Part shown: positions 2,061 through 40,064 of the stretch, piece after piece
Numbering within the stretch: the first letter of the stretch is position 1
Layout of the letters: every line of letters begins with the position of its first letter
DNA from: Shigella phage vB_SboD_StarDew
DNA length: 44,715 bases
Reading direction: 5' to 3' (one strand)
Sequence record: NC_073082
Position numbers and translations under genes: made by a program
The notes under the pieces: model-generated
Database searches by the model: none
The model's input: only the letters and a program-made list of their open reading frames with translations
Told to the model about the DNA's origin: nothing

Positions 2061-3581
2061 ATGACCGTTAACGTTGACAACCAGCACCCGCTCTATGCGC
2101 GCATCGCGCCAGAGTGGAAAATGATCCGTGACTGCGTAGCAGGTGAGCGCGCCGTGAAGGCGTGCGGCCCCTTGTACCTGCCGCACCCCGCAAGCGGCGA
2201 CACCACCGACCCGAAATCACGGGCACGCTATAAGGCATATAAGCAACGTGCTGTCTTCCTGAACGCCACCGCCCGCACACTGAATGCGCTGTTAGGTGTC
2301 GCCTTCGCCAAACCGGTGAGTATGGACCTTTCCGGGGCAATGGCTGACCTGATTGATGACGTTGACGGCAGCGGTATGCCGCTGGCGCAACTCCTGCGCG
2401 GTGCTATGTCTGAAGTTCTGCAATCAGGTCGTGCCGGGTTTATGGTCGACTACGACCGCCAGGCGCATTTTGACGAACTGGGTAACGTAGTACCGCAGAC
2501 AGCCGCTGAAATGGCAGCACACCGCCCGCTTATCCGCCTGTATACGGCTGAACAGATCATTAACTGGCGGCAGACCCACGGGGTCGACACGCTAATCGTG
2601 CTGAAGGAAACGGACGAAATCAGCACCGAAGACCCGGACGACTTCGCAAACCACGAAGTAACGATCTGGACCGAGCTTCGCATGATTGCAGGTAAGGCCC
2701 ACGCCCGCCGCTGGTTTTACAACGCTGACACGTCCGAGGTGCAGATGGACTTGCCGCGAGGCTTCACCCGCACCGACCTTGTACCATTGGTGGATGCCTC
2801 CGGTAATGCGCTTACTCAACTGCCATTTTGCTGGTGTGGCGCGGTGGACAACAACGCGACACCGGACGCCGCACCGCTGGCGGATATTGCGTCCATCAAC
2901 ATTAAGCACTACAACGCCGAAGCGGACGTCGCCGAGATCGCGCACATCGTGGGCCAACCTACACTCATTGCGACTGGTCTGACCCAATCATGGGCGGACA
3001 AGAACCTGAAAGGAGGCATCGCGCTCGGGGCAACTAAGGGCGTTATCCTGGGCCAGAACATGGACGCTAAACTTCTTCAGGCGGAGGAGCGCAACCTGTC
3101 TGTTGCACTGTGTGAGCGCCGCGAATTGCAAATGGCTAAACTGGGCGCGGCCCTGGTCGAGAAGGGGACCGCACCTAAGACGGCAACCGAGGCGGCCTAT
3201 GATGCACAGACTGATAACAGTATCCTGTCACTGATTGCCGGTAACGTCGAGAAGGCTTTCAACCGTGCGCTGCAAATCGTCAAGCTGTTCACGGGCGACA
3301 CCGCAGATCAACGCGTAACGCTGAATAAGTTCTACACCGAAATCACGGTTGACGCACAGCTTATGACCGCGATGATGGCAGGTGTGCAGACCGGTACTGT
3401 CCGACTGGCTGACTTTATCAAGTGGATGATGGCCCAGGGCGTTATTGATGACTCGCAAACCGTCGAGCAGGTGGAAGACGAACTGCGAAATCAGAATCCA
3501 TTGCCTCAAATGTCCCCGGATGCGGTAGAATCGACCGAAGAAGCCCCGGACGAGGTAGCGGACAATGGCGAAGACAATTAA
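2061..3581 (+). CDS. portal protein
   Basis: 506 aa ORF directly after terL with AAGGAAA RBS; acidic C-terminus; canonical gene order. Confidence 0.75.
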   Translation: MTVNVDNQHPLYARIAPEWKMIRDCVAGERAVKACGPLYLPHPASGDTTDPKSRARYKAYKQRAVFLNATARTLNALLGVAFAKPVSMDLSGAMADLIDDVDGSGMPLAQLLRGAMSEVLQSGRAGFMVDYDRQAHFDELGNVVPQTAAEMAAHRPLIRLYTAEQIINWRQTHGVDTLIVLKETDEISTEDPDDFANHEVTIWTELRMIAGKAHARRWFYNADTSEVQMDLPRGFTRTDLVPLVDASGNALTQLPFCWCGAVDNNATPDAAPLADIASINIKHYNAEADVAEIAHIVGQPTLIATGLTQSWADKNLKGGIALGATKGVILGQNMDAKLLQAEERNLSVALCERRELQMAKLGAALVEKGTAPKTATEAAYDAQTDNSILSLIAGNVEKAFNRALQIVKLFTGDTADQRVTLNKFYTEITVDAQLMTAMMAGVQTGTVRLADFIKWMMAQGVIDDSQTVEQVEDELRNQNPLPQMSPDAVESTEEAPDEVADNGEDN

Positions 3582-5116: not shown

Positions 5117-5881
5117 TTAGCGCGGAATACCGCAAATCTCGTTGAGAGTTTTCACATCCAGCGCCACCGCCGTGGATTTTGGCTTGTCCGGGTAAGGGAT
5201 GAATTGCTCAACTTCAGGCCATGCCTTAATCAGCTTCTTGTCAGTATTGTGCAGGTCCAGCACACCGGTAACGGTCAACTTGAACGCGTCATACTTAGCC
5301 CGCAATTCGCGGCGGGCCTTATCGTTACGGTCCAGGCGCTTGCAGAAATCGTGGTCCGCAGGGTAGTCTATGCGACCGCGTGGCTTATAGATCGGCAGCG
5401 ATTTTCCGTCCTCGTCCACTTCACACACCGAAGCCAGCATAACTTCCTCGAACCCCGGTACGATATCGCCGAGATCGGGAGATAGCTTATTCATGTATTT
5501 ATATTCCCAGTATCCTCGATGTACTCGGTATTGGTATCCGTCGCCGCTCAATGACAAGGTGCGAACGTTTCCGCCTGCGTTTATTTCGAAAGTGGCGTCG
5601 TAAACGCTGCCGATACCTTTTGGGCGGTCGGTGTTATAACTATACGTCGCCTTGTTGGTGTATACACAGACGCCGTACATCTGCGACGGGTCATCGCCGA
5701 TTGCTTCAATGCGCTCGAGTAGCTTGGCGAACGTGCGAATGCCTTCCGGCATACAGTCCAGCGTAATGGCATAAGCCAGGTCGCGCGAGTCCATCATGAT
5801 TTGTTTGGCTTCTGTCGCGATTTCGTGGTCGCGCAGGATGTTAGCCAGGATCTGATTTTTAATGTCTTTAGTAAGTCTCAT
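5117..5881 (-). CDS. hypothetical protein (254 aa), reverse-strand accessory gene (moron) inside head module
   Basis: Long ORF with GAGGA RBS 8 nt upstream of ATG at 5881; own promoter at 5911-5940; ORF track 5117..5926 trimmed to first ATG with RBS. No family recognised. Confidence 0.6.
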   Translation of the reverse strand: MRLTKDIKNQILANILRDHEIATEAKQIMMDSRDLAYAITLDCMPEGIRTFAKLLERIEAIGDDPSQMYGVCVYTNKATYSYNTDRPKGIGSVYDATFEINAGGNVRTLSLSGDGYQYRVHRGYWEYKYMNKLSPDLGDIVPGFEEVMLASVCEVDEDGKSLPIYKPRGRIDYPADHDFCKRLDRNDKARRELRAKYDAFKLTVTGVLDLHNTDKKLIKAWPEVEQFIPYPDKPKSTAVALDVKTLNEICGIPR

Positions 5882-5910
5882 TTTTGTGTCCTCGTTGTTG
5901 GTGTGCAACC

Positions 5911-5940
5911 AATATAATGCAACCAATACTCGGATTGCAA
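5911..5940 (-). promoter_or_regulatory. candidate promoter (minus strand): -35 TTGCAA, 18-bp spacer containing ATTGGTTGCA, -10 TATATT
   Basis: Read on reverse complement; same architecture recurs at 27247-27275 and 40008-40036. Confidence 0.45.
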
Positions 5941-6029
5941 GCGAATTTTGCGATTATTTTTATCGCTGATAATATTAAGGCGTGAAGTCAAGCGGGTGGC
6001 CCGCTTTGCCACAATCCCAGGGGGATAGC

Positions 6030-6731
6030 ATGAAACTTACTAAAGCAGAATATGACGCGTTGCCGGAAGGTATGAAGGCGCTTTTTGTTGCCGATGGTGA
6101 CGGGTATAAAGCAACGTTCATGACCGCCGAAGAAGTACAGGCGGAGATCAAGGGTCTGAAAGACAACAACGCGAAGCTGGTTAGCGAGAAGAAAGCAGAA
6201 GCCGAACGCCGCGCCGAAGCCGAGCGCCTTGCGAAAGAGAAAGAGGAAGCCGCCGCGCGCAAAAATGGCGACCTCGAAGCGATCGACAAGTCCTGGAAAG
6301 ATAAGTTTGCGAAACACGAAGCAGACACATCGGGAAAAATAGAAGCCTACCGCAAGCAGATCCACGACCTAACCATCGGCAGCGCTGCCAAAGATTTGGC
6401 CTCGAAGCTGTTCGGTAAGAATGCGGGCATCATGCAACGCCACGTTATGGACCGCCTGACGCTGGAAGACGGCGAAGACGGCAGCTTGAAGGTGCGTGTC
6501 TTGCAGGATGGCAAACCGTCCGCGCTGACTATGGAAGAGCTTGAAAAAGAGTTCCGTAATAACGCCGATTTTGCATCCGTCCTGGCGGGCACGCCAGCCG
6601 GTGGTGCGCCGAGCAAACCGACGCAGGTCGTCGAAGATGTGAAGTCTAAAATCACTATGGGCCACAGCTTTGGCATCACCGACCTGACGAAACAGGCGGG
6701 TGAAATCATCGCTAAAATGGGCGACGAGTAA
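6030..6731 (+). CDS. head scaffolding protein
   Basis: Lys/Glu/Ala-rich, coiled-coil-like sequence (KKAEAERRAEAERLAKEKEEAAARK); immediately upstream of the major capsid gene; GGGGGA RBS before ATG at 6030. Confidence 0.65.
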   Translation: MKLTKAEYDALPEGMKALFVADGDGYKATFMTAEEVQAEIKGLKDNNAKLVSEKKAEAERRAEAERLAKEKEEAAARKNGDLEAIDKSWKDKFAKHEADTSGKIEAYRKQIHDLTIGSAAKDLASKLFGKNAGIMQRHVMDRLTLEDGEDGSLKVRVLQDGKPSALTMEELEKEFRNNADFASVLAGTPAGGAPSKPTQVVEDVKSKITMGHSFGITDLTKQAGEIIAKMGDE

Positions 6732-11504: not shown

Positions 11505-11817
11505 GAGCGGGACAGGCGGGACGTCCCGTTTTGTCCCGCACCTCTAAAACTGCATATTTACTCACCACAATTGCATAAATTAAAAGCGGGACAGGGGTGC
11601 TGTCCCGCTTTGTCCCTCCCTTAAAAGTGAATAGCTATGCGGTTTTTCTGCATAAAACAAACGGGACAAAAAGCGGGACTGAATGGGGCGGGACAAAGCG
11701 GGACAGCACCCCTGTCCCCGCCAGTGCTGCCGCGGTTTTTAGCCGATCGGGACAGGCGGGACAAAGCCCAGTCTTTCAGACTAGACGGGGGGTCTGGCAC
11801 CCCCTCGTCTGAGACTG
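11505..11817. repeat. iteron/hairpin array A: multiple GCGGGACA repeats, palindromes, ACTGCATAA motifs and a 49-nt imperfect hairpin
   Basis: Read directly; about 90 bp plus the 49-nt hairpin nearly identical to 39660-39848. Confidence 0.85.
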
Positions 11818-24112: not shown

Positions 24113-24125
24113 CCGAAGAGTGAAA

Positions 24126-24152
24126 GAAAGGGGCCGTGCGGCCCCTTTTTTT
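24126..24152. terminator. bidirectional terminator (GGGGCCG-tgc-GGCCCC flanked by T-runs on both strands)
   Basis: Read directly; ends the tail fiber gene and the leftward operon. Confidence 0.65.
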
Positions 24153-24727
24153 TAGTTTGAGTTTTCCCAGTCCATTTTTCGCCGCACCAGCGGGCTTTCG
24201 TAATATTCCTTCCCATCCACTTCCACTAAGGGCCAGTCATTAACAATGACGTAAGGTTCTGCGATATCCTCGATCACGCCGTGCGCACTATGTTGTCCGA
24301 AATCTACGCCTACCAGGATAACCCCGGCAACTCGACGAGCAAGATATTCGCGGGCGCAACGCGCCTCTACCAGTCCGCGACGGATGCCGCTGGTGGCCTT
24401 AACCTCGTAGGTCCAGACGGCATCGATCACATGTTCGCGGAAGTCGGGACCGGATTTTACCTTGCGCTTGCCGACCATGATAATATCGCCGCGGTCGATA
24501 GTGTTAGCGCTAAACAGGCCGGTACGCATTAGCAAACCTTGCGGGATACAGCTACGCCCGCCCGCCTGCCCTTCGAGGTACATGCCCGCAAACATCTCAC
24601 CCAGCACACCGACCAGACGGCTTTGCCTGCAAGCGTCGGACTTGTATCGCCACTGGTCAAACTCGATGCTTGCGATCATTGCCGCCAGGTGGAATTGTTT
24701 ACCAGATATTTCATATTCGCCGTACAT
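24152..24727 (-). CDS. hypothetical protein, possible PD-(D/E)xK-type nuclease
   Basis: 191 aa; GAGGA RBS; candidate motif GPDF...TYEVK; weak assignment. Confidence 0.45.
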   Translation of the reverse strand: MYGEYEISGKQFHLAAMIASIEFDQWRYKSDACRQSRLVGVLGEMFAGMYLEGQAGGRSCIPQGLLMRTGLFSANTIDRGDIIMVGKRKVKSGPDFREHVIDAVWTYEVKATSGIRRGLVEARCAREYLARRVAGVILVGVDFGQHSAHGVIEDIAEPYVIVNDWPLVEVDGKEYYESPLVRRKMDWENSN

Positions 24728-24769: not shown

Positions 24770-25291
24770 TTATTTAAGTGCGCCAGTCACCAGTGTTTTT
24801 TCCATGTTGCGGAAATCTTCCGGCGTCATGAGGATTTTCGATCCGTCTTCGCCCGTGAGCACGACCATAGGCTGGACGTCATGATCTGCGATGCCAAAAT
24901 TAGCGGCTTTAACCGTCTTGCCCACAGATGAAGAAGGATGCCACGTCCCGGCGGAGGCGATGGGCCAACCTTTGAGGCTGTCGTATTGAGCTGCCGTTGT
25001 ATCGACCTGAATCTCGTCATGCGCGGTCATGTAAGACTCGCCCAGCAAGGCGGCATACGCTACCAGGTCCACGATATTATCTTCCTGGTGCTTACGGCAC
25101 TGGCGCACCAGCTTCAGGCAGATCAGGAAGGTCCAGGCTTCTTGCTCGGACAGGTCGCGCCCGGTAAGCGCGTTAAACACGGCGGCGATCTGTTTAGCGC
25201 TGCGTTCTTCTTTCGCGTTGTCATAGCCGTTTTCTTTCCCGCGCTGTTCCATAGTGGTGGCGGCGTTTTTGCAGTATTCGTATGCTTTCAT
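24770..25291 (-). CDS. hypothetical protein (173 aa)
   Basis: AAGGAAA RBS before ATG at 25291; track ORF 24770..25417 trimmed. Confidence 0.5.
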   Translation of the reverse strand: MKAYEYCKNAATTMEQRGKENGYDNAKEERSAKQIAAVFNALTGRDLSEQEAWTFLICLKLVRQCRKHQEDNIVDLVAYAALLGESYMTAHDEIQVDTTAAQYDSLKGWPIASAGTWHPSSSVGKTVKAANFGIADHDVQPMVVLTGEDGSKILMTPEDFRNMEKTLVTGALK

Positions 25292-25353
25292 TATGTTTTC
25301 CTTTTTAGTGGGGGCGGTATTGCCCCCGACGTGATTAAGATACTGCAACCAAC

Positions 25354-25824
25354 CTATTGGTTGCAAGTGAATTTTGCAACGTTTATCGCATAAATTTTCG
25401 GGACCAGATCGCCGCACGCCCGACGAATTGCCGCGATGTTCTTCGGACAGTCTTCAATGATGACCAGTTCCGACACGTCCGCGTAGCAGACCATTTTGAA
25501 CACGGCGCACGCCTTAAACTCTGGCGGCGGGGTGTCGTCCAGCATGTGGCGCATAAACAACCGGCCTACCGGGAATACCTCCAATTGCTCGGCGGTGGTG
25601 TCCCAACATTCACGCTGCCGGTTGGTCAGATACGCGATCTCGAAGCCTTGCTCTTTGTACATGGTCAGCAGCGGCAGCATATCCATGTTCAGATCTTCGC
25701 GTACGTGCGCTCTGTGCCACTTCGCCCAAAAGGTGGATTTAGTTTTTATGCCAGGCACCAGGTCGGCACGCGCATCGCTTGAACCGTTAATAACGCCATC
25801 CAGATCGCAAATCAGTAATTTCAT
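25354..25824 (-). CDS. HAD-superfamily phosphatase-like protein (possible nucleotidase / polynucleotide 3-prime phosphatase)
   Basis: N-terminal HAD motif I (LLICDLDGVI); GAGGAG RBS. Confidence 0.55.
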   Translation of the reverse strand: MKLLICDLDGVINGSSDARADLVPGIKTKSTFWAKWHRAHVREDLNMDMLPLLTMYKEQGFEIAYLTNRQRECWDTTAEQLEVFPVGRLFMRHMLDDTPPPEFKACAVFKMVCYADVSELVIIEDCPKNIAAIRRACGDLVPKIYAINVAKFTCNQ

Positions 25825-27199: not shown

Positions 27200-27246
27200 A
27201 TCACTGTCTCCGGGTATCAAAAAGGGCGTCCAAACCGGACACCCTC

Positions 27247-27275
27247 AATATAATGCAACCAATACGGTTATGCAA
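27247..27275 (-). promoter_or_regulatory. candidate promoter (minus strand): -35 TTGCAT, 17-bp spacer containing ATTGGTTGCA, -10 TATATT
   Basis: Read on reverse complement; 19-mer AATATAATGCAACCAATAC identical to 5911-5929. Confidence 0.45.
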
Positions 27276-27280
27276 CCAAT

Positions 27281-36894: not shown

Positions 36895-36925
36895 CGTTGG
36901 TCATTAACCAACTGAGGGCAGTGCG

Positions 36926-37255
36926 ATGAATGTAAATGACGCAATCGAAATGTTAACGAAGACTGTTAGCAGTGAAACACGCCGGTCATGGGCTTATACC
37001 GATGCCGTGGGGGCGGTGTTATTTGAAATCGAACGACTGCGCAGTGTCGAAAAAGAATTACGCGCCAGGCTGGAATTGCTCAACGGCACGGCAGCAAGCA
37101 AGCTGCAAAAGCACAATGAAGAAATGGAAGAATACAAAAAACAGGTTATCCGTTTGCGCGCCGAGGGCAAATCCTGGGCGATGATTGCCGAGTTGACCGG
37201 AATTAATCAGAGCACAGTGCGCTCCTGGGTACGCAATAATAAAACTTCTAAGTAA
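36926..37255 (+). CDS. HTH DNA-binding protein (candidate transcriptional regulator)
   Basis: C-terminal helix-turn-helix-like segment GKSWAMIAELTGINQSTVRSWV; GAGGG RBS; first rightward gene. Confidence 0.55.
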   Translation: MNVNDAIEMLTKTVSSETRRSWAYTDAVGAVLFEIERLRSVEKELRARLELLNGTAASKLQKHNEEMEEYKKQVIRLRAEGKSWAMIAELTGINQSTVRSWVRNNKTSK

Positions 37256-37265
37256 GGCCGCGGCA

Positions 37266-39530
37266 ATGAGCTTAATTAAATTCGCTGTAACACGACCCGC
37301 TAAAAAAGGCGAAAAAGCCAGGGCGGAAAACTTCCAGATGACTACCGAAGAGTTTTTCGAATTTATCAATGATGCGAAAGAAATCTCCTCGGTGCATATC
37401 AACAAAACGGAAGATAAAGCGGAGTATGCACGCCGCAAGCGTAAGGCCGATGGCATTGTGGCTTATACCAGTGACGGCTTACGTCGCAAGACCAGTGCGG
37501 TGGACCGCTCGATCCTGTTCTTCGATATTGACCGTACTGACACCCGCACCCTACGCCGCTGCCGTAAGGCGTTCATCGACGCGGGACTGGAACACGTATT
37601 TCACACCACAACCGGCGACCGCCACCCGCTGAAAGGCGGCACGCGTTGCGCTCGATTCCTGGTACTCACGGACAAGCCTGTACCAGCTGAAGACCTGGGC
37701 CGTGTCCAGTATGCGCTATTACACCAACTGGGCCTGTCAGATGTGGACTTCGACGACTGCACGAAAGACACAAACCGCCTTATGTACCTGCCACACCAGC
37801 AGTCTGTTATTAAGTGCCACTATGGCAAGCGCGCCCGCGTCCGTCGTCTGCTCCGCCTGGCTGACAAGCTGGGAGTGGAAAAAGAGGAAGTTCGCCGCGA
37901 ACTGACCCAGGGCGACGACGCAGTGGCAGACGGCATTCTGGACTGGTGCTTCCAGGCAGGATTCGAGGAGTTATCTTCCGGTCGGGGTTATGAAGTGCCG
38001 TGCCCGAACGAACATCTGCACAGCGGCGAAGGGTCGACGGCTATCATGGTCAAGGATGGCGAGATCCGTTTCAAGTGTATGCACACCGGCAACGAGTGTT
38101 GCTCGGAGCTGAACAGACACCAACACCTGGCGCTGCGTCTTATCGGCATACCGGACCACCTCAACGTCGAGCCACACAATATGTCCCGTAAGCAAATCGC
38201 CGCCATCCTTCCGGGGCTGGACGACGAGGAAGTGGAATCCTTATACGAACATATTGTTGATGCAGTTGGCGACGGCGAAGAATACGGCGTGTGCACCGAT
38301 GCGGACCTGGATAACGAGCTGGTTGCGCTGTTCAGTAAGCACGACCCGATCATCGAGGGGTTGATTAACTTTAAATCGACCTGGTACATGGCTGGCGAGT
38401 CGAATATCGGTAAGTCTTTCTACGTGCTGGGCCAGATGGGAGCGGTTGCCGCCGGTATTCCGTTTGGTGGCGCGAAGGTCGTCCAGTCTCATTGCTTCTA
38501 TTTCGACGCGGAAGGTGGCGAAGCCTCCAACCAGCGTAAAGAAGCATTGCAGATTAAATACGAGCACGACCTGGACAAGCTGCACATTATAGACCTGCAG
38601 TCACGCGGCTGGGATATCACCAGCAAATCAGGCTTGCGCGAAGTTATCAGCTTTATCAACCGCACCGCTAACGGCGAACCGGTTGGCCTGGTGGCGTTCG
38701 ACTCACTCAACCAGACGGTTGCGTTGCGGTCCGCTGATGCTAAACCGTTCGACGAGAACAACGCCAGCGATATGGGTGAAGTGGTCAAAGCGCTGAAGGC
38801 CATCGCGGAAAATACAGGTGGCAGTGCGGGCGTCATCCACCACCCGGCTAAAGGTGCAAACGGCAGCAGAACGCCACGCGGGTCCGGTGCGCTGCATGGT
38901 GCTGTCGATTCTGCGTTCTTCCTGGAACAGCCGGACGACAACCAGCCCGGACAATTGAACCTGTATCACGAAAAGTCACGTAACGGCATCAAGCAAGCGC
39001 CGCGCGGCTTCGTCCTGCTCAAGTGCAAGGTGAAGGTGGATCTCCGCAAGTCAGAAGCGTTCGAGGCGCACCAGTCCACCAGCACCGGGCCAGACTTCGG
39101 CGACGTGGTTGCCGGATGGGACGTCAAGCCGATTGCCTCCACGCCACGCGACGAGACTCTCTACCTCGTACCGGTTGCCCTGGCACCGTTCGCTATTGAA
39201 CAGGCGAAGGCCGCGGGCAAAGCAGCAGTTAAAGAAGAGAACACCGCCGGACCGCGCAACGAAAAAGAGAAAGTGCTCTATGCGGCACTGGAAAAACTGA
39301 TGGAAGATAACCCGGACCATACTGGATTCAGTAAATCGGCAATTGTCCGCCAGGCTGGGCTGGCAAAAGGTGGCACTTCGACGAAGGCAATCGACGATAT
39401 GGTGGAGCGCGGGGTGATAGGTTTTTACACCGATCCGCACACCGGGGCCATCTATGGGTCGTCTAATTTGGTCATCAAATCGGATATACCCATCACGCTT
39501 TCAGCGACCGATGACGATTTAAAAGATTAA
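37266..39530 (+). CDS. DNA primase/helicase-like replication protein (prim-pol-like N-terminus, Cys/His cluster, RecA-like ATPase domain)
   Basis: ILFFDIDR acidic motif, Cys/His cluster CPNEHLHSGEGS...FKCMHTGNECC, Walker A MAGESNIGKS and Walker B-like LVAFDSLN. Confidence 0.65.
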   Translation: MSLIKFAVTRPAKKGEKARAENFQMTTEEFFEFINDAKEISSVHINKTEDKAEYARRKRKADGIVAYTSDGLRRKTSAVDRSILFFDIDRTDTRTLRRCRKAFIDAGLEHVFHTTTGDRHPLKGGTRCARFLVLTDKPVPAEDLGRVQYALLHQLGLSDVDFDDCTKDTNRLMYLPHQQSVIKCHYGKRARVRRLLRLADKLGVEKEEVRRELTQGDDAVADGILDWCFQAGFEELSSGRGYEVPCPNEHLHSGEGSTAIMVKDGEIRFKCMHTGNECCSELNRHQHLALRLIGIPDHLNVEPHNMSRKQIAAILPGLDDEEVESLYEHIVDAVGDGEEYGVCTDADLDNELVALFSKHDPIIEGLINFKSTWYMAGESNIGKSFYVLGQMGAVAAGIPFGGAKVVQSHCFYFDAEGGEASNQRKEALQIKYEHDLDKLHIIDLQSRGWDITSKSGLREVISFINRTANGEPVGLVAFDSLNQTVALRSADAKPFDENNASDMGEVVKALKAIAENTGGSAGVIHHPAKGANGSRTPRGSGALHGAVDSAFFLEQPDDNQPGQLNLYHEKSRNGIKQAPRGFVLLKCKVKVDLRKSEAFEAHQSTSTGPDFGDVVAGWDVKPIASTPRDETLYLVPVALAPFAIEQAKAAGKAAVKEENTAGPRNEKEKVLYAALEKLMEDNPDHTGFSKSAIVRQAGLAKGGTSTKAIDDMVERGVIGFYTDPHTGAIYGSSNLVIKSDIPITLSATDDDLKD

Positions 39531-39607
39531 ATTTTGCGCGCATTGGTCGCCGTTATGGGAATCCCCATATCGGTAAAAGATTAAATTTTGCGCGCATTGG
39601 TTGCCAT
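39521..39607 (+). repeat. pair of 31-nt direct repeats (AAAAGATTAAATTTTGCGCGCATTGGT(C/T)GCC) separated by 25 bp
   Basis: Read directly; first copy overlaps primase stop codon; each copy contains an ATTGGT(C/T)GCC element. Confidence 0.85.
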
Positions 39608-39659
39608 TTTGCGTGCTTTTAGCCGGTCGTATTGGTTGCCGTGTAGTGTAAATATAATG

Positions 39660-39848
39660 AATAGTTATGCAGTTTTATTGCATAAAGTAAGCGGGACAAA
39701 AAGCGGGACAGACCAGGGGCGGGACAAAGCGGGACAGCACCCCTGTCCCGCCCCGGATGACGCGGCCTGGCGAGGAGCGGGACAGCGGGACAGCACCCCA
39801 GTCTTTCAGACTAGACGGGGGGTCTGGCACCCCCCTCGTCTGAGACTG
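39660..39848. repeat. iteron/hairpin array B, near-duplicate of array A
   Basis: Shares GGGACAAAAAGCGGGAC, GGGGCGGGACAAAGCGGGACAGCACCCCTGTCCC and the 49-50 nt hairpin with array A. Confidence 0.85.
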
Positions 39849-40007
39849 CATAAAATCCAGGATTGCATAACGCACGGCAACATGATGCAAATTGCGGTCG
39901 TCGATGATCTAGGCAACCAATGCGAGTTGCAGAATGGTGGGTGAGAAATGCAGTTTGCAGTCACAGCAGATAGCGATCAACTTTTTCATACGCGTGATTA
40001 ATATTGG

Positions 40008-40036
40008 TTGCACCCACCCTGGCACCCTGCTATATT
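40008..40036 (+). promoter_or_regulatory. candidate promoter: -35 TTGCAC within ATTGGTTGCA, 17-bp spacer, -10 TATATT, conserved leader
   Basis: Leader TATATTGGTTGCACACCAACA...GAGGAC nearly identical to the reverse complement of 5890-5916. Confidence 0.45.
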
Positions 40037-40064
40037 GGTTGCACACCAACATGAGGACTGAACA

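Follow-up and report, generated by a model that had tools for sequence, protein, structure and literature searches.

The genome of Shigella phage vB_SboD_StarDew (NC_073082), whose full 44,715 nucleotides make up the window analysed here, carries at positions 25344 to 25365 a perfect palindrome in which both arms are copies of a recurrent 9-bp box. We estimate at roughly 0.6 the probability that an internal sigma-70-type promoter cassette is built around this palindrome, one which, to judge from the arrangement of its sequence elements, would combine two operator boxes with a stem-loop and drive leftward transcription into the DUF6378 gene and the 191-aa gene. The mirror symmetry is most likely incidental, the apparent by-product of two asymmetric boxes that share one promoter rather than a special dyad element.

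Read on the minus strand, the site runs gcaaaattcac-TTGCAA-ccaataggttggttgcag-TATCTT-aatcacgtc-GGGGGCaataccGCCCCC-actaaaaaggaaaacata-ATG (Table 1). The cassette would accordingly open with an A/T-rich stretch resembling an UP element, followed by the -35 in the right arm, a spacer that holds the left arm, the -10 and a start near 25330; a GC stem-loop would lie 1-3 nt beyond the start and be succeeded by the Shine-Dalgarno sequence and the ATG. Host RNA polymerase would presumably use TTGCAA and TATCTT. The features by which a sigma-70 promoter is recognised, namely a TTG-type -35, a spacer of 16-18 bp, a -10 with A2 and T6, and a downstream gene with a ribosome-binding site, are all found here. 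A first-pass annotation of this DNA had surmised that the palindrome may mark an internal promoter, and the TTGCAA-N18-TATCTT on the gene strand, in a layout kept in 31/31 relatives, supports this.

The same annotation had reported the palindrome TGCAACCAA-CCTA-TTGGTTGCA and, beside it, a GC hairpin (GGGGGC-ggtatt-GCCCCC, 25310-25327), and both are present as described. Its placement of the palindrome between the phosphatase gene and the next gene needs amending: the site does precede the next ATG at 25291, and its right arm lies inside the phosphatase open reading frame (ORF), the stop codon of which falls in the 4-bp spacer. With the phosphatase ORF at 25354..25824 of the minus strand, its three final codons (Cys-Asn-Gln) are those of the right arm (25357-25365). 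Perfect 9-bp arms do not in themselves make a palindrome rare; when every 9-bp register with a loop of up to 12 nt is counted, the window holds 13 inverted repeats at about seven places, against a mean of 3.0 in shuffled controls. The non-random feature is that both arms are an over-represented box, not the symmetry per se. The recurrent 9-mer noticed in the first pass does occur in 12 copies over both strands where 0.49 are expected, a number reached in none of 100 shuffles. A k-mer survey gives the box core as ATTGGTTGC, within a box of 9-10 bp, ATTGGTTGC(A); the core has 15 copies in the window against 0.55 expected, and 12 of the 15 lie in the non-coding 7% of the genome (binomial P about 6e-12).

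Comparison of the orthologous site in 31 sequences drawn from IMG/VR, GenBank and metagenomes separates what is fixed from what varies. At all 31 sites a TTGCAA supplies the -35 and stands 17-18 bp from a -10-like hexamer, the second box abuts that hexamer, and the hairpin starts 7-9 nt beyond it. The -10 itself reads TATAGT in 20 and TATATT in five sequences, each a 5/6 match, and TATCTT in six, the window included; a promoter scan flags such orthologous sites as TTGCAA-18-TATAGT (L002) and TTGCAA-17-TATATT (L019). The arrangement of the boxes, by contrast with the promoter, is variable: the pair is inverted at 27 sites, direct in the '<<' sense at three and direct in the '>>' sense at one. 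Phages slur06 and McMelon and one IMG/VR contig have the direct pair TGCAACCAAT-aa-TGCAACCAA-c-TATATT, while LM40P1 has a direct pair in the other orientation, ATTGGTTGCA-atccgta-TTTGGTTGCA-c-TATATT. A box can supply the -35 in either orientation because TTGCAA is a palindromic hexamer. LM40P1 also lacks the phosphatase and yet keeps the boxes, there in non-coding DNA, which argues that selection acts on the DNA rather than on the Cys-Asn-Gln codons. In two contigs (L013 and L015, at about 2960-3030) the 4-bp centre is flipped from TAGG to CCTA; the phosphatase thereby loses its stop codon and gains 17 codons, and the site is undisturbed. This change is exactly what an inversion between two inverted repeats would yield.

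The box is by no means confined to the palindrome. A search of the window with a position weight matrix (PWM), combined with anchored inspection, locates box-bearing promoters at eight places, and the box is found in 7 of the 49 best PWM matches, including most of those that stand correctly oriented at gene boundaries. Within these promoters the box core occupies a small set of registers: it covers the -35 at -40..-32 (at -34..-26 when reversed), abuts the -10 from within the spacer at -23..-15, or covers the start at -9..-1. Nearly every early or middle promoter of this phage clade has the box at one or more of them. The recurrent box spacings of 14, 17 and 31 bp follow from these stereotyped registers. 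Box 2 of the palindrome has the register also seen at promoters A-left and D. Promoter A-left shares the UP-like A/T stretch (GCAAAATTCGC) and has one box in its spacer and another over its start site, where it forms a TTGGT-N5-ACCAA dyad. Promoter G is conserved in every genome compared, and in a distant sister clade two overlapping boxes fill its spacer. The box sites persist between diverging flanks in four other complete Dhillonvirus genomes, and are kept as well in the sister clade, which has the same gene order. A GCC variant of the box, ATTGGTTGCC, cannot form a TTGCA -35 and is conserved beside the iteron cluster downstream of the helicase-primase gene. Its copies lie at 39530-39640 (39596 and 39631) and at 39913-39921, each preceded by AAATTTTGCGCGC, and they flank a near-palindrome TTATGGGAATCCCCATA (39553-39569; TATGGGAATTCCCATA in relatives). 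The GCC is kept in every genome compared, the sister clade included, which suggests a role unrelated to promoters.

Table 1. Elements of the palindrome site, box-bearing promoters and other features of the window.
Feature	Position	Strand	Remarks
Palindrome, two head-to-head box copies	25344..25365	none	TGCAACCAA-CCTA-TTGGTTGCA, perfect 9-bp arms
Box 1 core ATTGGTTGC, right arm	25356..25364	plus	gene strand GCAACCAAT, about -34..-26; encodes Cys-Asn-Gln
Box 2, left arm	25344..25353	minus	gene strand GTTGGTTGCA, about -23..-15, the -10-proximal half of the 18-bp spacer
HAD phosphatase TAG stop	25354..25356	minus	within the 4-bp spacer of the palindrome
A/T-rich UP-element-like stretch GCAAAATTCAC	25367..25377	minus	upstream of -35; putative function
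Predicted -35 TTGCAA	25361..25366	minus	4/6 against TTGACA; inside right arm
Predicted -10 TATCTT	25337..25342	minus	4/6 match; 18-bp spacer from -35
Predicted transcription start	25329..25331	minus	about 7 nt past -10, from standard sigma-70 geometry
GC stem-loop GGGGGC-aauacc-GCCCCC	25310..25327	minus	predicted at transcript 5' end; no U-tract after
Shine-Dalgarno (AAGGAAAA) and DUF6378 ATG	25289..25303	minus	about 40 nt downstream of promoter, same strand
Promoter A-left	5940 -> 5911; element 5898..5941	minus	drives nmad5; TTGCAA-N18-TATATT
Promoter B	~22018 -> 21990	minus	drives Cor-like lipoprotein gene
Promoter C (palindrome)		minus	leftward; drives DUF6378 gene
Promoter D	27275 -> 27247; element 27219..27280	minus	box, TTGCAT, N17 with second box, TATATT
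Promoter E	30217 -> 30189	minus
Promoter G	36750 -> 36722	minus	near-consensus early leftward promoter, TTGACT-N17-TAATAT, reversed box in spacer
Promoter H3	40008 -> 40036; element 40003..40049	plus	box at -35 TTGCAC, N17, TATATT, box/dyad over start
Promoter I	40566 -> 40594	plus
TTGGT-N5-ACCAA dyads	36897-36911; 5898-5912; 40035-49		promoter of helix-turn-helix gene; A-left; H3
Candidate box-binding protein	36926..37255	plus	109 aa, long helix and C-terminal helix-turn-helix
GCGGGACA cluster	39691-39792		just downstream of helicase-primase gene
GCGGGACA cluster	11507-11763		non-coding, upstream of tape-measure gene
HAD phosphatase ORF	25354..25824	minus
DUF6378 gene	24770..25291	minus	ATG at 25291
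191-aa gene	24152..24727	minus	with DUF6378 gene, last two genes of the leftward early/middle cluster
Long leftward cluster	~36750 -> 24152	minus	replication and nucleotide-metabolism genes
Rightward early cluster	starts 36926	plus
Structural genes			rightward orientation

The GC stem-loop that follows the predicted start has a 6-bp G/C stem and a predicted stability of -14.6 kcal/mol (z -3.0) in the window. With each orthologous sequence folded separately, it forms in 25 of 25 distinct sequences, with stems of GGGGGC/GCCCCC, GGGGC/GCCCC or, through a paired insertion, GGGAGGC/GCCUCCC; column-wise counting of covariation in a MAFFT alignment was abandoned because indels shift the 3' arm out of register. 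The hairpin is not a canonical terminator, since it has no U-tract, and its most likely role, by analogy with the 5'-terminal stem-loops of ompA-type leaders, would be to stabilise the transcript. Promoter D is organised differently: its 10-bp hairpin, followed by U4, is terminator-like and begins 1 nt after the -10 (27219-27252). Transcripts arriving from upstream could therefore stop at D, whereas those initiated there would be missing the stem's 5' arm. The layout of the promoter D hairpin recurs, with compensatory changes, in the sister clade (L020).

We suppose that a phage-encoded, sequence-specific protein would bind the boxes. The earlier proposal that the recurrent 9-mer is a protein-binding box is plausible, given that the 9-mer is invariant, is used in either orientation, and lies over core promoter elements as well as outside promoters; an invariant, asymmetric 9-mer found in both orientations and also at non-promoter sites argues for such a protein rather than for a mere promoter element. 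A protein bound to boxes that overlie the -35 and the spacer would most likely block polymerase, and its accumulation would shut the box promoters off. The presence of one or more boxes inside the spacer of the strong promoter G points to the geometry of a repressor rather than that of an activator, and we rate repression as the outcome of box binding at a little under even odds.

The most promising source of such a protein is the gene at 36926-37255, the product of which matches HTH_23, HTH_28 and Sigma70_r4_2 in Pfam and bears the family label 'transposase' in PHROGs. It contains the sole recognisable DNA-binding domain among the early proteins scanned against these two databases, in which the other early ORFs scanned had no informative match. 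An AlphaFold model of it (mean predicted local distance difference test score, pLDDT, 84.5) shows a helix over residues 21-79 and then a C-terminal helix-turn-helix (HTH), and retrieves from the PDB generic HTH domains alone, with expectation values of about 1. Among 20 aligned homologues the C-terminal 60 residues, comprising helix and HTH, are almost invariant and the N-terminal 45 diverge beyond recognition; in several lineages these 45 residues have been replaced by unrelated sequence. There is thus no co-variation of binder and box to exploit, since neither the DNA-binding half nor the box varies among the relatives found. The HTH gene's own promoter has a perfect box at about +9..+18 in the sister clade. 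On these sequence grounds the HTH protein is a tentative candidate for the box binder.

A second kind of element, the TTGGT-N5-ACCAA dyad, occurs three times where 0.04 copies are expected, in each case over a predicted start site. Its half-sites are centred 10 bp from each other, the classical spacing for an HTH dimer, and the copy at the HTH gene's own promoter (36897-36911) looks like an autoregulatory operator; the sister clade has the perfect box in its place. The octamer GCGGGACA is likewise over-represented, with 16 copies against 2.0 expected and two clusters of seven copies each. The cluster downstream of the helicase-primase gene, whose product yields AAA_25 only in Pfam, is likely to be an origin. 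The GCGGGACA iterons are as conserved as the box and occur in the sister clade too. Satellite phage P4 has iteron clusters at ori and crr, which the two-cluster layout recalls. It is conceivable, if doubtful, that one small protein, most plausibly the 109-aa coiled-coil/HTH protein, combines autoregulation at the dyad over its own start site, the shut-off of at least eight early and middle promoters, binding beside the origin and the use of a two-site operator without fixed orientation, each box being read independently. Were this so, a virulent siphophage would possess a genome-wide HTH regulon that couples the early-to-late switch to replication and takes in both the palindrome and the promoter of the toxic nmad5.

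Several considerations weigh against the reading of the palindrome as an operator-bearing promoter. The -10 of the window, TATCTT, is weak, and its promoter allele, the weakest among the relatives compared, attains a PWM score of 8.0 against 10.2-11.2 in most of them, so that a stringent promoter scan misses it. Promoter-like hexamers arise easily, and TTGCAA matches the consensus at just 4/6 positions. The covariation of the hairpin consists of a few variant types among close relatives, several of which carry uncompensated mismatches. As regards the regulator, the geometry of the boxes alone cannot distinguish a repressor from an activator, and the HTH protein, being the sole recognisable candidate, could equally serve the GCGGGACA iterons. 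The searchable literature, finally, yielded no transcription start, transcript or protein-binding data for any Dhillonvirus.

The first-pass annotation took the palindrome for a dyad operator, the symmetry of which a dimeric phage repressor or activator would recognise. The perfect 9-bp arms, the prevalence of the inverted arrangement (27/31), the long helix through which the HTH protein could dimerise and the use of TTGGT-submotif dyads elsewhere in the genome all accord with this idea. We nonetheless consider it unlikely, as the four relatives with direct repeats, in one orientation or the other, retain the same promoter intact; the remaining boxes of the genome are single or form direct pairs 12, 14, 17, 31 or 35 bp apart; and the flipped 4-bp centre of L013 and L015 does not cost the site its integrity. 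Moreover, the classical, enriched dyads of this genome are of the form TTGGT-N5-ACCAA, and the palindrome does not belong to their class because its polarity is the opposite; it is the only ACCAA-N4-TTGGT arrangement in the genome. The annotation's further suggestion of an attenuator belongs to a different explanation, at the level of the RNA. In read-through transcripts the palindrome would fold into a hairpin whose loop holds the stop codon, and this hairpin and the GC hairpin would jointly divide the operon by attenuation, termination or processing. Both are predicted to be stable (-12.4 kcal/mol for the palindrome and -14.6 kcal/mol for the GC hairpin; -27.1 together, z -4.3), promoter D close by has a terminator-like hairpin with a U-tract, and the G-tract/C-tract stem-loops of the promoter-early stem-loop (PeSL) cassettes of T4-type phages lowered the expression of a downstream reporter (Arbiol et al. 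2010, PMC2839356). On the transcribed strand, however, neither hairpin is followed by a U-tract: the GC stem runs on into ACUAAAAAGG, is absent from the minus-strand terminator scan and comes shortly after the predicted start, not ahead of it, so an intrinsic terminator or attenuator was rejected. An antisense terminator fared no better. The palindrome followed by AGTGAATTTT was flagged on the plus strand only, where the strong bidirectional terminator at 24121-24154 leaves no rightward transcription to be expected, and the palindrome hairpin cannot form in the four direct-repeat relatives. Nor was a known RNA family recovered, the only Rfam hit, to the DUF2693 RNA, scoring 22.3 bits where the family's gathering threshold is 81.3. 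An RNA-level role for the palindrome accordingly appears improbable.

If the boxes are bound by a protein, that protein might instead be an activator, a phage factor which, like T4 MotA/AsiA or lambda CII, recruits or remodels the host polymerase at 'middle' promoters; the palindrome would then turn its promoter on. The imperfect -35 hexamers (TTGCAA, TTGCAT, TTGCAC and TTGCTG), several of them with 18-bp spacers, would suit such a factor; the box overlaps the -35, as do MotA boxes and the lambda CII repeats; and the box promoters drive replication and nucleotide-metabolism genes, which are typical of the delayed-early class. Activation seems unlikely all the same, because boxes are also found in the spacer by the -10 and over start sites, in both orientations, and because the near-consensus promoter G needs no activator and still has one or two boxes in its spacer; the scan of the early proteins, which was not exhaustive, revealed no MotA- or AsiA-like family. 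At the far end of the scale stands the notion that no dedicated protein is involved and that the box reflects the shared ancestry of duplicated cassettes, or recombination microhomology, with the palindrome again a by-product. The cassettes are indeed paralogous, A-left and C having GCAAAATTCRC-TTGCAA-N8-TTGGTTGCA-N-TAT in common, and genes are gained and lost at the cassette as they are at T4-type PeSLs. This is hard to reconcile with a 9-mer that stays unchanged between diverging flanks in five Dhillonvirus genomes and in a sister clade with differing neighbouring sequence, with the retention of the GCC variants off promoters (39596, 39631 and 39913), or with fixed registers in either orientation, and we regard it as very improbable. 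The reading that we prefer remains that of a sigma-70-type promoter cassette with two operator boxes and a stem-loop.

A host chromosomal operator was also sought as a source of the palindrome and discarded. When the dyad, with any 4-bp centre, was searched in one genome per species over 185,579 species (single boxes being too short for the purpose), 15 scattered matches in unrelated taxa were returned, against 9-17 estimated by chance, and none of them was in E. coli. One of the 15 is on a short Serratia contig. At 6096-6117 of the Serratia sp. PL17 contig (L046) the sequence TGCAACCAA-cttt-TTGGTTGCA is followed by a 17-bp spacer and TAGAAT; this promoter-like layout stands in an unrelated context and may be a chance occurrence. 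Among host factors, the CytR octamers (GTTGCATT), the PdhR/GntR-type sites (ATTGGT-N3-ACCAAT), the sigma-54 -24/-12 elements and the NtrC sites appear to fit neither the invariant ATTGGTTGC nor its spacings, and are leads only.

By BLAST against phage genomes the window is a complete genome of 44.7 kb of the genus Dhillonvirus, the HK578/SSL-2009a-like siphophages of E. coli; about 155-190 phage records match it at 80-95% identity, and its gene order is colinear with that of phage Oekolampad. The bidirectional terminator at 24121-24154 (AAAGGGGCCgtgcGGCCCCTTTTTTTT) separates the end of the leftward cluster from a tail-fibre gene convergent with it. The 8-mer AAGGGGCC is over-represented (10 copies against 0.64 expected) and probably represents a shared terminator stem. 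The nmad5 gene driven by promoter A-left occupies 5117-5881 on the minus strand. In Dhillonvirus SM_S22 nmad5 is reported to be toxic if cloned and to trigger the Tmn defence system (PMC11846954).

A literature search found no paper on the box motif or on Dhillonvirus promoters, gene regulation or transcriptomes. The palindrome site is a fresh example of familiar kinds, a promoter with embedded operators and a PeSL-like cassette, and the ATTGGTTGC-box regulon around it is undescribed in the literature found. Dhillonviruses are common coliphages in work on phage therapy and defence systems. If the regulon is real, a single 9-bp box would map essentially all early and middle transcription units, and it would offer a handle for engineering the expression of genes such as nmad5, which lies behind a two-box promoter.

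Operators embedded in core promoters are well known from lac O1, the TetR spacer sites and lambda OR/OL, all of which are dyads bound by dimers. The present boxes resemble them in that several short sites lie over the -35, the spacer and the start, which is the geometry of polymerase occlusion; they differ in being asymmetric 9-mers in either orientation and at variable spacing, with a putative binder. DnaA boxes, for their part, are asymmetric 9-mers that occur at the origin and in promoters. Here, too, a 9-bp asymmetric box is found in both orientations, by the iterons (39542-39921) and in promoters throughout the genome, but it does not resemble TTATCCACA in sequence, the phage has no evident DnaA-like protein, and a part in replication would be pure inference. 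The 5'-terminal stem-loop of ompA mRNA is a stabiliser, and the stable hairpin predicted here, 1-3 nt from the 5' end and upstream of a Shine-Dalgarno sequence that it does not sequester, is comparable, although in this case the start site is predicted only. In T4 middle promoters the MotA box, with its centre near -30, takes the place of the -35. The likeness consists in a phage-specific box of 9-10 bp near the -35 and a sigma-70 -10 that is kept; the difference is that a TTG-type -35 is retained here and that the boxes fall in three different registers and both orientations, so that these are not promoters of the MotA type. Middle promoters with MotA boxes are mentioned alongside the PeSL cassettes (Comeau et al. 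2014, PMC4122927).

It is to PeSL cassettes that the site bears the closest architectural comparison. Each has a stop codon and an A/T-rich stretch, then a sigma-70 promoter, followed by a G-tract/C-tract stem-loop and, last, the Shine-Dalgarno sequence and ATG; the cassettes are repeated through the genomes of T4-type phages and serve as recombination junctions for the shuffling of ORFs (Arbiol et al. 2010, PMC2839356; Comeau et al. 2014, PMC4122927). The palindrome site has the same order of elements, there are many copies per genome in both systems, and the stem-loop of promoter D is terminator-like and overlaps the start site. It is precisely at the cassette, too, that gene content differs: an additional ORF is present here in McMelon, and LM40P1 lacks the phosphatase but keeps the cassette. 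The McMelon insertion has duplicated stem-loops on both sides; its additional ORF of 111 aa (phrog_7287; L018, 24400-24790) has the promoter-plus-hairpin on one side and another copy of AACCACATCGGGAGGCAATACYGCCTCCC on the other. On the other hand, PeSLs were defined in the hyperplastic regions of T4-like phages, whereas the host genome of this cassette is that of a 45-kb siphovirus and not of a T4-like myovirus; an additional invariant box of 9-10 bp, in one to three copies, is present here and not described for PeSLs; and the stem-loop accompanies some box promoters only (C, D and I), with an activity that is predicted from sequence. Since the window is a Dhillonvirus siphovirus, the resemblance is one of function and architecture and not of membership. 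We propose that the cassette behaves like a mobile promoter/stem-loop unit for the gain and loss of genes, and the comparison points to promoter/stem-loop cassettes as likely gene-shuffling junctions beyond the T4-like phages.

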